Virus record (IMG/VR): IMGVR_UViG_2706795344_000001
Location: 40,907 to 104,906 of that record
DNA length: 64,000 bases
Strand: one strand, 5' to 3'
DNA from: a virus
Taxonomy: Duplodnaviria > Caudoviricetes
Made by a program: the position numbers and the translations under genes. This document shows, piece after piece, positions 21,849 through 41,647 of this stretch (its first letter is position 1; the number at the start of each line of letters is the position of its first letter). A model generated the notes under the pieces. That model was not told the DNA's origin. It made no database searches and worked only from the letters and a program-made list of their open reading frames with translations.

Positions 21849-21874
21849 AATCCAGCCTTAGTGCTGGATTTTTT
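21849..21874 (+). terminator. Rho-independent terminator
   Basis: AATCCAGC/GCTGGATT stem plus T-tract. Confidence 0.7.
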
Positions 21875-21893
21875 GTTATATAGGAGTAGTAAA

Positions 21894-24800
21894 TTGTCAG
21901 GAAAATATACATCAATCTTAATGCAAGAATCGAACTCATATGTGGATAGATTCCCTCAGTTCGTGGATGCAATTACATTTCAAAAGGAGGATTTGTTCTG
22001 GACAGAGAAAGAGATCAAAGTTGAAAAAGATGAACAGGACTTAAAACATAATATCCTACATTCGCAAGTTCACGCTTTGATGTTCAACCAACGACTCTTT
22101 ACTAAATATGAAGATGTCATTGGTAATGATTACTGGATTGGTGTTGTACATAAGAAGTATAAGTGTCATGAAATTCGAAGACTGGCTATTTGTTTTGCTG
22201 ATGTCGAGAATAACATTCACTTCCCATTCTATCGTCGTGTGAACGAAGTTTTAGGGACCCATAACGATGAATTCTATGATGCATTTGAGACAGACCCTAT
22301 TTTAGTGGAACGTGTTAAATTCATGCAGGAATTGGTGGCATCGAAAGATACACTGGCATCTATGGGTGGATTTGCTTTCATGGAAGGTGCAGTATTATTT
22401 ACAGCATTTGCTATGATCAAGTCTCTCGGTGTTAAAGGTCAGTCATTTATGCCTAATTTGATTTCAGGTATTAACATGTCTATCCTTGACGAGAACTTTC
22501 ACATGCAGACGGCTTGTGAGATTTTCCGTACACAGTTAGAACTTGAGAATCGTACAGAGGAGGATGTTCGTAAGCTTAAAGAGGCCATCTATAAGCATGC
22601 TGAGAATGTCTTGGAACATGAATACATTATCATTAATGCTATGTTAGCTGAAGGTGATATTCCTTTTGCTTCTAAGAAGGAGTTGCAAGCATTTGCTCGT
22701 CACCGTGTTAACGTTGTATTAACAACTTTAGGTTTCCCTGAGTTAGCCACATTTGATGAGACAGATGATACTATCTCTGAGTGGTTCTATGAATTCATGG
22801 GTGGGTATACAAGTAACGATAACTTCTATTCTCGTGGTCGTAACTACAAGAAAGAGTTCTCTGCTGTTGACTATGACATTATCTCAAATGGTGCTGTAGA
22901 GGAAGTACTTGCACAAATCCCTGATGAGTATTTAGACCAAATGGGTATTGACTTGAATCGTAAGTTCGAAAAGACTTTAGAGGAAGAGTTAGAGGCCAAA
23001 CGTCCTAAACGTAAGAAGCACAACAATGCGGAAGATGCTTTATATGTTCCAGATTACAGTCGTGAACGTAAAGAGATGCAAGCACGTGGTGAAGCTCCTG
23101 AGTGGATGGCAACGGCTGGATGGCAGTTATTCAAGAAGAAATATCTTAACGGTGACTGTAAGACTCCAAAAGACCAGTACATGCGTATTGCTAAGTGTTT
23201 AGGGCAGTATGCACCTGAAGTTTACCCTTCTTGGTGGAATACTATTCCATATTGGGCTGGTTTGACATGGGAAGAGGCATTCTTCAAAATCATGTGGGAT
23301 GGTTTCTTAAGTCCTTCAACTCCTGTACTTTCAAACACAGGTACAGATTTTGGTATGTCGGTATCATGCTCTGGTGCTGTAACTGAAGATAGTGTTGCTG
23401 GGTTCTATGACGCTCGTAAGATCAATGCATTACTTTCGAAAGAAGGTTTTGGTACTACAATTGATTTAGATCGTATCCGTGGACGTGGCATGCCAATGAA
23501 GGGTGGTATTGCCAATGGTGCTCTTCCTGTAGCTCGTATGTTCCGTCAGGATGCTTTAGATATCAGCCAAGGCTCACAACGTCGTGGTGCTACAGCTTGG
23601 TATTACAGTGTGGAAGGTTTGGACTTTGATGAATTATTACACTTCTTAGAGTATGATACGGATGGCAATAATGGTGGTTGGAAAATTACTAATGAGCTTC
23701 TTAACCGTGTCTTAATTGGTGATACATTAGCTATTGAACGTTTGAATAAAATCTTAGCTGTTCGACACCATGTAGGTTTGGGTTACGAATTATTTATCGA
23801 TAAGGTGAATGCTCGTCGTCCTCAGATGTACAAAGATCGTGGTATGATGGTTTCTACAAGTAACCTATGTACTGAGATTACATTGTTTAGTGACCCTGAA
23901 CATACATTTACATGTGTATTGTCAAGTGAGAACTTAGTTCGATTTGATGAGCGTCCAGAGAACTTGGCCTTTGTTGGTACAGTGTTCCTTGACTGTGTGG
24001 CTGAAGACTTTATTCAGAAAGGTTCTAAGATCAAAGGTCTTGAAACTGCTGTTGAGTTTACTAAGAAAGGCCGTGCTCTTGGTTATGGTACAATGGGCTT
24101 TGCTTCATACTTAATGCGTAACGACATCGAGTATGGTTCAATGGAATCATTCTGGAAGAATAAGAAGATTTATTCTACCCTTGAAGCAGAAACAAAAGCA
24201 GCTTCTAAATGGTTGGCTAAAGTTCTTGGTGAACCAGAGTGGTGTGAAGGTTATGGTGTTCGTAATACACACTTAATGGCTATCGCTCCTACTAAGTCTA
24301 CAGGCTTATTAATGGGTGGTGACTCTGAGGGTATTAATGTTCCGTCAGCATTTGTATTTGCACAAGATACTCCAGCTGGAACTGTATTCCGTATTGACCC
24401 ATCATTCTTGATGTTGTTGAAACGTAAAGGTCTATATAAAATTGACCCTGAAACAAAACGATTAACACCTGAAACTGAGGCGTTATTAAAACGTGTGTCA
24501 GACAACCTTGGTAGTGTGCAAACATTAACAGATGTCTTGACAGACAAAGAACGTGCTGTATTTAAAACAGCTTATGAGATTAACCAGTACCGTCATATTG
24601 ATTTGTGTGCTCAACGTCAAGAACATATTGACCAAGCTCAATCAATCAACTTATTCATTGCGAATATGTCGGCTCAGGAAATCGCTAAGTTGTATATGTA
24701 TGCTGCACTTAACCCTAATATCTTGAGTTTGTATTACCATACTGGTATTCGTGACTCTCGTATTGGGGAGAATAAAAACGAATGTGAATCTTGTCAATAA
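21894..24800 (+). CDS. Class I ribonucleotide reductase, beta (NrdB) and alpha (NrdA) subunits fused in one ORF
   Basis: Beta: 'FW...EI', 'FTKYE', 'ENNIHFPFY', 'MEG..LF..F', 'DENFH'; alpha: 'SPSTP', 'SC', 'SNLCTEI', 'TCVLSS', 'APT', 'DQAQS.N', 'LYY', C-term 'CESCQ'; TTG start after RBS TAGGAG. Confidence 0.9.
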   Translation: MSGKYTSILMQESNSYVDRFPQFVDAITFQKEDLFWTEKEIKVEKDEQDLKHNILHSQVHALMFNQRLFTKYEDVIGNDYWIGVVHKKYKCHEIRRLAICFADVENNIHFPFYRRVNEVLGTHNDEFYDAFETDPILVERVKFMQELVASKDTLASMGGFAFMEGAVLFTAFAMIKSLGVKGQSFMPNLISGINMSILDENFHMQTACEIFRTQLELENRTEEDVRKLKEAIYKHAENVLEHEYIIINAMLAEGDIPFASKKELQAFARHRVNVVLTTLGFPELATFDETDDTISEWFYEFMGGYTSNDNFYSRGRNYKKEFSAVDYDIISNGAVEEVLAQIPDEYLDQMGIDLNRKFEKTLEEELEAKRPKRKKHNNAEDALYVPDYSRERKEMQARGEAPEWMATAGWQLFKKKYLNGDCKTPKDQYMRIAKCLGQYAPEVYPSWWNTIPYWAGLTWEEAFFKIMWDGFLSPSTPVLSNTGTDFGMSVSCSGAVTEDSVAGFYDARKINALLSKEGFGTTIDLDRIRGRGMPMKGGIANGALPVARMFRQDALDISQGSQRRGATAWYYSVEGLDFDELLHFLEYDTDGNNGGWKITNELLNRVLIGDTLAIERLNKILAVRHHVGLGYELFIDKVNARRPQMYKDRGMMVSTSNLCTEITLFSDPEHTFTCVLSSENLVRFDERPENLAFVGTVFLDCVAEDFIQKGSKIKGLETAVEFTKKGRALGYGTMGFASYLMRNDIEYGSMESFWKNKKIYSTLEAETKAASKWLAKVLGEPEWCEGYGVRNTHLMAIAPTKSTGLLMGGDSEGINVPSAFVFAQDTPAGTVFRIDPSFLMLLKRKGLYKIDPETKRLTPETEALLKRVSDNLGSVQTLTDVLTDKERAVFKTAYEINQYRHIDLCAQRQEHIDQAQSINLFIANMSAQEIAKLYMYAALNPNILSLYYHTGIRDSRIGENKNECESCQ

Positions 24801-24810
24801 GGAGACAGAT

Positions 24811-24921
24811 ATGAAAGATGGATGGGGTATCGGCATCCGTGATGGTCATGGACTTGGTAAAGAGGGTTGGTCGTTTAAACGCTCAGAAGGCTGGGATGAC
24901 AAAGAAGCTTGGGACTTGTAA
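24811..24921 (+). CDS. 36-aa Gly/Trp-rich microprotein (not in ORF track)
   Basis: RBS AAGGAG, ATG; MKDGWGIGIRDGHGLGKEGWSFKRSEGWDDKEAWDL. Confidence 0.45.
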   Translation: MKDGWGIGIRDGHGLGKEGWSFKRSEGWDDKEAWDL

Positions 24922-24928
24922 AAAGTTG

Positions 24929-24989
24929 TTGACAAGCTAAAACTTAACCATTAATATAAGGGCATATCTTTCGGGATGTGCCCTTTTTT
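24929..24989 (+). promoter_or_regulatory. Promoter immediately followed by terminator hairpin
   Basis: TTGACA-17-TAATAT then GGGCATATCT-ttcg-GGATGTGCCC-T6. Confidence 0.75.
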
Positions 24990-40819: not shown

Positions 40820-41647
40820 GTTTATTCACAGTGGGTAATGACGTTGGATTAGCTGCCGATCATCTGAATTTTGCAATCGAGGCTTTAGAAGATTGTGACA
40901 TTGATGGTGAGGCTATGGATTCATTACGTGAGGCCCAGCAACGATTAGATCAAGCTATGGCTGAGATTGCAGATTTGAGAGGTAAGTATGGCGAAGCATA
41001 GTCAAGCTACGAAAGACTTTAAGCAGAAACACTACCAAGACATTCGTGTCAAATATGGTTGTGGTGTATGTTTACAGCAAGGTGGGGAGGCAGTTGTTCT
41101 TGATAAGGTTGGAGCTAAGAAATTGATTAAAGAACTTAGTTCTTGGATTGATAGTAAATGATGATACATGGCAGAAAGACTACATATAAGGATTCGGTTC
41201 AACGTCTCCTTAATTGTGGTGCTGACCTTGAATCAATGATGATTGATATGCTTGAGTTTGAAAAGAATCTTACTGCTGGTCTAAAGGAACGTCACTGGAC
41301 AGCCTCATTTCACGTAGGAGGAGAGTTAAAGTCTTTGACTATAGTACCAGAGGGAACAGAGCTTTCATTCCGTGTGCAGGATTTGGCGAAGTATAGGGTG
41401 TTATTGACACCAGAGGAGTTGAGATAATGCCTATATGTGTTGGTGGGCCTTTACATTATCAACATGCATTATGTGGGGATTATATATATACACATGATCG
41501 TGGAAGAGTTGTTAAGTCTTATGTGTTGAGAGAGTATTGGTACAACGATGGGTCGGTTAAAAAGATTCAACTATACCAACACTGCTCATACTCTGATGAA
41601 TGCATCATAAAATTCCTAAATGAGAAATTTAATTTGAACCCTGTTGA

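Follow-up and report, generated by a model that had tools for sequence, protein, structure and literature searches.

Class I ribonucleotide reductases (RNRs) are textbook two-component enzymes, whose active α2β2 complex is weak and short-lived. A gene in a 64,000-nucleotide (nt) stretch of viral DNA (hereafter, the window), positions 40,907 to 104,906 of the 104,906-bp IMG/VR virus record IMGVR_UViG_2706795344_000001, raises the question of whether such an enzyme can also exist, and work, as one polypeptide. Positions 21894–24800 on the plus strand of the window hold a single stop-free open reading frame (ORF) of 968 amino acids plus stop codon, in which nrdB and nrdA are fused in frame. Our analysis indicates that this gene probably encodes a genuine class I RNR, with the β subunit at the N terminus and an α subunit without an ATP cone at the C terminus of one chain of approximately 110 kDa; taken as a whole, this is the best explanation of the data. 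That the uncleaved chain is itself the working enzyme, a permanently assembled (β–α)2 with its radical-transfer tail held on α by an internal docking segment, is a reading towards which we lean.

Both halves of the protein are recognizable throughout. The frame runs without a stop from a GTG at 21861 or a TTG at 21894 to 24800; residue numbers here count from the GTG (protein P0001, 979 amino acids), so that the TTG start corresponds to residue 12. Pfam assigns Ribonuc_red_sm (PF00268, 108.8 bits) to residues 40–295 and the pair Ribonuc_red_lgN (PF00317, 37 bits) and Ribonuc_red_lgC (PF02867, 218.9 bits) to a span of residues 419–979, and finds no match to the ATP cone (PF03477) in the fused protein. 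The ferritin-like, radical-generating β core comprises residues 12–313 (21894–22799, plus strand), as delimited by PF00268, alignments to Protein Data Bank (PDB) structures, invariant columns and a predicted local distance difference test score (pLDDT) mostly of 80–96. The α catalytic domain comprises residues 399–979 (23055–24797, plus strand). Its best PDB matches, 6dqx and 6dqw (E values 1e-81 and 1e-70, 30–33% identity), superimpose on the α model with template modelling (TM) scores of 0.91–0.94 in Foldseek. Because the profile phrog_30939 covers the protein end to end (2207 bits, residues 13–979 against positions 3–977 of a 977-position profile), the fused protein is already a recognized sequence family, labelled only ‘ribonucleotide reductase’. 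Public labels of the protein itself are inconsistent (‘large subunit’, ‘class Ia alpha subunit’, ‘subunit beta’, ‘hypothetical protein’ and ‘deoxynucleoside kinase’); none names both halves, and all but ‘subunit beta’ conceal the β half.

The residues expected of an active enzyme are also in place. In β, the NrdB set consists of the radical-site tyrosine Y124, the transfer-path tryptophan W47 and the C-terminal-tail tyrosine Y329, and W47, E84, E116, H120, Y124, E175, E211, H214 and Y329 are invariant in 8/8 fused representatives. In α, the NrdA catalytic set is present, with the N-L-C-x-E motif, the redox cysteine pair, the YY dyad and the C-terminal cysteine pair, and C503, N668/C670/E672, C685, Y958/Y959 and C975/C978 are equally invariant in 8/8. 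A preliminary description of the locus, made from the sequence, had claimed an uninterrupted ORF with a complete β domain and a complete α domain lacking an ATP cone, and all of this is borne out. It had also called the β tyrosine the radical Tyr. Y124 is present and invariant, but a radical role goes beyond this evidence, as class Id enzymes keep a tyrosine at this site that does not serve them as a stable radical (PMC6754362).

The β domain is closest to PDB 9dws, followed by class Id βs. In a gap-free alignment to 9dws, the best PDB β, which has Asp at the position in question, E84 is the first metal ligand; the Glu ligand of the preliminary description therefore holds in this alignment, although an alternative alignment to the Leeuwenhoekiella blandensis β puts D85 at that position. 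All six ligands (E84, E116, H120, E175, E211 and H214) are present, with E-x-x-x-H as the second motif where the canonical NrdB pattern of six carboxylate and histidine ligands (D/E ... ExxH ... E ... ExxH) has E-x-x-H. The complete second motif, E-x-x-x-H-x-x-x-Y (residues 116–124, window 22206–22232), is one residue longer than in all of the solved βs aligned. Among homologous βs checked for this spacing, which include P0122-P0199, it occurs in 66/66 stand-alone βs of the clade and in cyanophage BUCT-ZZ01 (L002:1977-2981), and is absent from P0283, an NrdBi-type protein discussed below. Since all stand-alone βs of the clade share it, the spacing marks the lineage and is neither a consequence of fusion nor a sign of decay.

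In NrdBi proteins, the first ligand is Glu, a Trp seven positions further on is strictly conserved and, in a subgroup, a Lys precedes this Trp by three positions (PMC6754362). E84 of the window protein agrees with this, but Tyr91 occupies position +7 (the Trp comes at +8) and Gly88 occupies position +4, and this Tyr/Gly pattern is NrdBk-like. The cone-free α agrees with class Id, and NrdAi never bears an ATP cone (PMC5794259). Because two of the NrdBi signatures fail, we place the enzyme near class Id/NrdBk by sequence and assign it to neither NrdBi nor class Id. The class Id enzymes of Flavobacterium johnsoniae, Actinobacillus ureae, L. blandensis and Facklamia ignava (6DQX, 6DQW, 6CWO, 5OLK; PMC6754362, PMC5794259) supply the best solved α matches, those of A. 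ureae and F. johnsoniae being the closest, and share with the window protein the cone-free minimal α, the Glu first β ligand and the Tyr retained at the radical site; they differ in having separate subunits, in the NrdBi Trp (ligand +7) and Lys (ligand +4) that are Tyr and Gly here, and in ExxH rather than ExxxH. The cofactor is probably dimanganese or diiron, between which sequence alone cannot tell; class Id itself is marked by a Mn2(IV,III) cofactor that lacks a stable tyrosyl radical.

Could a lost stop codon or a frameshift in one assembly have produced this gene? The record is approximately 83% identical at the nucleotide level to Saclayvirus Acinetobacter phages (B09_Aci01-1, Aci02-2, Aci05, TAC1, D22, P1 and others). 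The preliminary description had suggested looking for the same fusion in related genomes, and the same fused ORF is found in 16 phage records at 95–97% amino acid identity (approximately 83% nucleotide identity) and in Acibel004 at 76% amino acid identity. In a collection of 5.8 billion proteins, the only related proteins with both β and α fall into seven 90%-identity clusters, at 74–96% identity and with 55 member sequences; relatives at ≤60% identity are all stand-alone, either α of approximately 580 or β of approximately 340–360 amino acids. When the fused protein or its alignment was used to search IMG/VR for related loci, only two genomes came up, both known, and a metagenome locus search returned no further fused forms, only split relatives at 57–67% identity. 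A stop in the linker of relatives, which the preliminary description had named as evidence against a fusion, occurs in no fused relative examined. The canonical class I architecture of separate α2 and β2 polypeptides is thus not what these phages encode; the single ORF is kept across the clade.

The gene is also under selection along its length. Compared with Aci02-2, from which it has diverged substantially at synonymous sites (synonymous divergence, pS, 0.23–0.51), the ratio of non-synonymous to synonymous substitution (dN/dS) is 0.017 in the β core, 0 in the tail, 0.023 in the linker (pS 0.34) and 0.052 in α. The view that the ORF is an artefact of assembly or sequencing, or a pseudogene in decay, can be given almost no weight: beyond the inconsistent annotations, no support for it was found, whereas the same frame recurs in independent genomes (the 16 records, Acibel004 and the seven clusters), dN/dS is 0.02–0.13 in every segment, and all functional residues are invariant.

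How the fusion arose can be read from its split relatives. In a maximum-likelihood tree of α domains, the eight fused proteins form one clade (support 100/100). Its sister is a Phab24-like clade with split genes, and it lies within split lineages, a placement that indicates a single fusion event for this phage clade. Overlapping nrdB–nrdA genes would have fused a single time, at the root of the Saclayvirus-like Acinetobacter phages. The Phab24-like Acinetobacter phages and Edwardsiella phage ET-ABTNL-9, with separate nrdB–nrdA(–grx), are the nearest homologues (β 68%, α 59% identical) and share the gene order, the E-x-x-x-H motif, the tail Tyr, the acidic–hydrophobic docking motif, the cone-free α and the C-terminal CxxC. 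In Phab24, two genes in different frames, nrdB (343 amino acids) and nrdA (581 amino acids), share an 8-nt overlap, and a glutaredoxin gene follows directly after them; the window protein has instead approximately 33–45 extra joining residues and no adjacent redoxin gene. The stand-alone βs of the clade end 0–35 residues beyond a shared D-F-D-I-F-type motif, which follows the tail Tyr, so a free β C terminus seems to have been dispensable before the fusion. In the nearest split relatives, the α-binding motif would then have been internal already, and this is probably why fusion could be tolerated.

Fusion may also be easily reached elsewhere. A full phmmer search, covering 1.84 billion representatives, turned up a single further protein that combines the two halves, P0283 (1,019 amino acids, from an 85-kb contig of a Logan assembly), in which the order is ATP cone, β, α. 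Scanning Genome Taxonomy Database (GTDB) genomes with P0283 gave a 933-amino-acid β+α ORF in a metagenome-assembled genome of Candidatus Kapaibacterium (L079:461-3259), with a Ser codon at the position of its relatives’ β stop. Each of these two fusions is seen on one or two contigs, which is compatible with a sequencing error at the stop codon. Both have β followed by α in one ORF, as in the window, but they are of NrdBi/NrdAi type with canonical ExxH and unrelated linkers, and are distant in the tree; P0283 is 27% identical to the window protein. At 71/97 NrdBi–NrdAi operon loci, a count that largely reflects shared ancestry, only one stop codon separates nrdB from an nrdA that shares its frame, as it does in cyanophage BUCT-ZZ01, and one substitution would therefore be enough to fuse them. 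In these same-frame loci (L017-L096, Flavobacteriia and others; for example, L084:3989-6688 and L017:3977-7057), α starts 0–2 codons after the nrdB stop and carries a hydrophilic N-terminal extension of approximately 40 residues that could serve as a ready-made linker.

Such ease of fusion, together with the sporadic fused forms P0283 and L079, speaks for a neutral origin, in which the stop or the frame between nrdB and nrdA was lost by accident and the result became fixed; a tethered chain would then act no differently from the split enzyme and bring no selective benefit. We regard this as unlikely. The fused state has persisted while the clade diverged to 74% amino acid identity and its synonymous sites became saturated, no reversion to split genes was seen, and fused proteins carry a conserved extra segment past the docking motif that split relatives lack, which suggests adaptation after the fusion.

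Other long homologues turned out to be of different kinds. Two long β homologues that were considered as additional fusions, P0200 and P0202, contain intein/LAGLIDADG domains and were rejected. Most α-like proteins of approximately 900 amino acids are α plus inteins, some also with a C-terminal glutaredoxin; the stand-alone αs P0317, P0326 and P0328 combine an intein of LAGLIDADG or HNH type with a C-terminal glutaredoxin domain. P0203 (829 amino acids, on a 4-kb contig) has a β domain that is 71–78% identical over its first approximately 230 residues, followed by approximately 600 residues without a Pfam match; this C-terminal part might represent a further fusion or an insertion that resembles an intein.

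An AlphaFold2 model of the whole chain, from a 28-row alignment, has a mean pLDDT of 79.7 and a predicted TM score (pTM) of 0.62. Near the junction, confidence is low at residues 314–332 and 381–398 and higher (pLDDT 72–88) at residues 333–380 between them; the termini and residues 571–576 are also of low confidence. Residues 314–332 are a flexible β tail (22800–22856, plus strand; pLDDT <50), which contains the invariant Y329 (codon 22845–22847). Residues 333–380, an ordered tail or docking segment (22857–23000, plus strand), open with an acidic–hydrophobic D-[YF]-D-[IV]-[IF] sequence that corresponds to the C-terminal α-binding motif of stand-alone βs, and are also supported by alignment to split βs. 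The last segment, residues 381–398 (23001–23054, plus strand), is a disordered basic linker with pLDDT <50 in both models, and with indels of 8–12 residues and low identity among fused relatives; compared with Acibel004, the linker is 46% identical and has 8 additional residues, with the frame kept.

A second AlphaFold2 model, of residues 318–979, leaves out the β core and was taken as a stand-in for contacts between tail and α. In this model (pTM 0.81), residues 338–377 keep a pLDDT of 73–82 and residues 381–397 are disordered. Because the segment after Y329 (residues 333–380) retains its confidence when the β core is removed, the models suggest that it probably docks on α. Relative to the nearest split homologues, the β tail runs to about residue 350, and roughly 33–45 residues are extra. 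The fused protein aligns to the Phab24 β until 9 residues before its end and to the Phab24 α from residue 4, so that approximately 45 residues stand in for 12 in Phab24. The preliminary description had placed a charged linker of approximately 65 residues between the domains. A linker exists and is basic, but the β tail continues to approximately residue 350 and only residues 381–398 are disordered; as modelled, the true flexible linker may therefore be only approximately 17 basic residues.

This linker (residues 381–398) is disordered and rich in Lys and Arg, and its drift in sequence and length among relatives would be expected of a segment that needs only to be cleavable or flexible. The protein might thus be translated as one chain while the working enzyme consists of separate β and α, released by proteolysis in the linker or supplemented by partial internal initiation, with the fusion serving only co-expression. 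We consider this quite improbable. No in-frame start preceded by a Shine–Dalgarno sequence lies near the α N terminus, and the only Met close by, M395 from the TTG start or M406 by P0001 numbers, is replaced by Leu in Acibel004, on which grounds an internal start for α was rejected. An intein or protease in the linker was likewise rejected, as Pfam finds no such domain. Purifying selection among close relatives acts on the linker (dN/dS 0.023) just as it does on the domains, and overlapping genes such as those of Phab24 already secure co-expression through translational coupling, with no need of a fusion.

The preliminary description’s structural reading, in which NrdB and NrdA are genuinely fused in frame to give a class I RNR of one chain that lacks an ATP cone, is thus supported by the domains, their conservation, purifying selection, the clade-wide fusion and the lack of an internal start signal. 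Three points weigh against a single-chain working enzyme as we picture it. The second metal motif, E-x-x-x-H, departs by sequence from the canonical E-x-x-H; the high pLDDT of residues 333–380 could reflect a self-contained helical element in the models; and post-translational cleavage in the basic linker is the main alternative.

If the uncleaved chain is the working enzyme, its parts would act in the order in which they are encoded: the β core, a 19-residue tail with Y329, an ordered segment of approximately 48 residues, a basic linker of approximately 17 residues and then α. The usual α–α and β–β interfaces would dimerize the chain into (β–α)2, equivalent to α2β2, and the internal tail motif would occupy the α cleft of the same or the partner chain. 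The radical would pass from the metal site through Y329 and Y958/Y959 to C670. The tether would set a 1:1 stoichiometry and raise the local concentration of a weak, transient partner. The preliminary description had further suggested that tethering may keep cognate subunits paired, prevent mixing with those of the host and sustain the nucleotide supply against nucleotide-depleting defences; these benefits are speculative. Because α has no ATP cone, no shut-off by dATP would be expected.

The preliminary description had noted no thioredoxin or glutaredoxin in the window, and this is correct: the flanking ORFs have no Pfam match, which also led us to reject a downstream glutaredoxin such as that of Phab24. 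The same genome, however, encodes an 84-amino-acid thioredoxin whose active site reads WCAPC (PF00085, 46.6 bits; G000:C1:11635-11889, equivalent to L005:1495-1749), approximately 51 kb upstream of the RNR gene and outside the window, as the sole genome-wide redoxin match. The whole genome contains only one β domain. This thioredoxin is likely to be the reductant of the fused RNR, and the phage’s own protein would then re-reduce the C-terminal CxxC.

A terminator-like hairpin followed by a T-run lies just upstream of the gene (21849–21870, plus strand), where a terminator is also annotated in Acibel004; GTG 21861 is disfavoured as the start because it falls inside this hairpin. A Shine–Dalgarno sequence, AGGAG (21882–21886, plus strand), stands 7 nt before the TTG start of the fused nrdB::nrdA coding sequence (21894–24800, plus strand), which is delimited by the ORF, Pfam, PHROGs and relatives. 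Database annotations of relatives begin either at the TTG-equivalent start (968 amino acids) or at ATG 21921 (959 amino acids). A second terminator-like hairpin (24958–24985, plus strand), again with a terminator annotated at the same place in Acibel004, would end the transcription unit. Between the RNR stop and this terminator lies a Trp/Gly-rich ORF of 36 amino acids (24812–24922), preceded by a strong AAGGAG site. Only a shortened remnant of it occurs in Aci02-2 and it is absent from Acibel004, so that conservation as a gene is improbable.

Fusion of RNR components into one ORF has precedents in NrdD–NrdG of eukaryotes (PMC3019208) and in Grx::NrdB and ATP-cone::NrdB (PMC6187632, PMC5794259), none of which unites the radical-generating and catalytic subunits of class I. 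The closest designed counterparts are engineered Escherichia coli class Ia α–β-tail fusions (PDB 8VHU; PhotoRNR chimera, PMC11067019), in which the β C-terminal tail is covalently tethered to α and which show that a tethered tail still reaches its site. They are artificial and place only the last 35 β residues on the α C terminus, whereas the window protein has the whole of β before α. No description of a natural NrdB::NrdA fusion was found in the literature searched, which included surveys of phage RNRs, the engineered chimeras and a genome survey of Saclayvirus but few subscription journals, and this is weak evidence of absence.

The transience of α2β2 has long hampered study of long-range radical transfer between the subunits, and it was for this reason that the artificial tail fusions were made (PDB 8VHU; PMC11067019). 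A natural, conserved fusion of full-length β and α would offer a built-in 1:1 tethered holoenzyme for cryogenic electron microscopy, electron paramagnetic resonance and kinetics, and would let radical transfer in cis and in trans be tested directly. It also exemplifies how readily adjacent in-frame subunit genes merge. If the uncleaved chain works, it would be a ready-made means to capture the normally transient active α2β2, and it would mean that class I RNRs can function as a single chain, an arrangement that would have evolved at least twice. For the phages themselves, which belong with Saclayvirus, a genus of therapeutic phages known for a toolkit of nucleotide biosynthesis (PMC12893723), the fused enzyme would be a self-contained factory of deoxynucleoside triphosphates, predicted to be immune to dATP shut-off.

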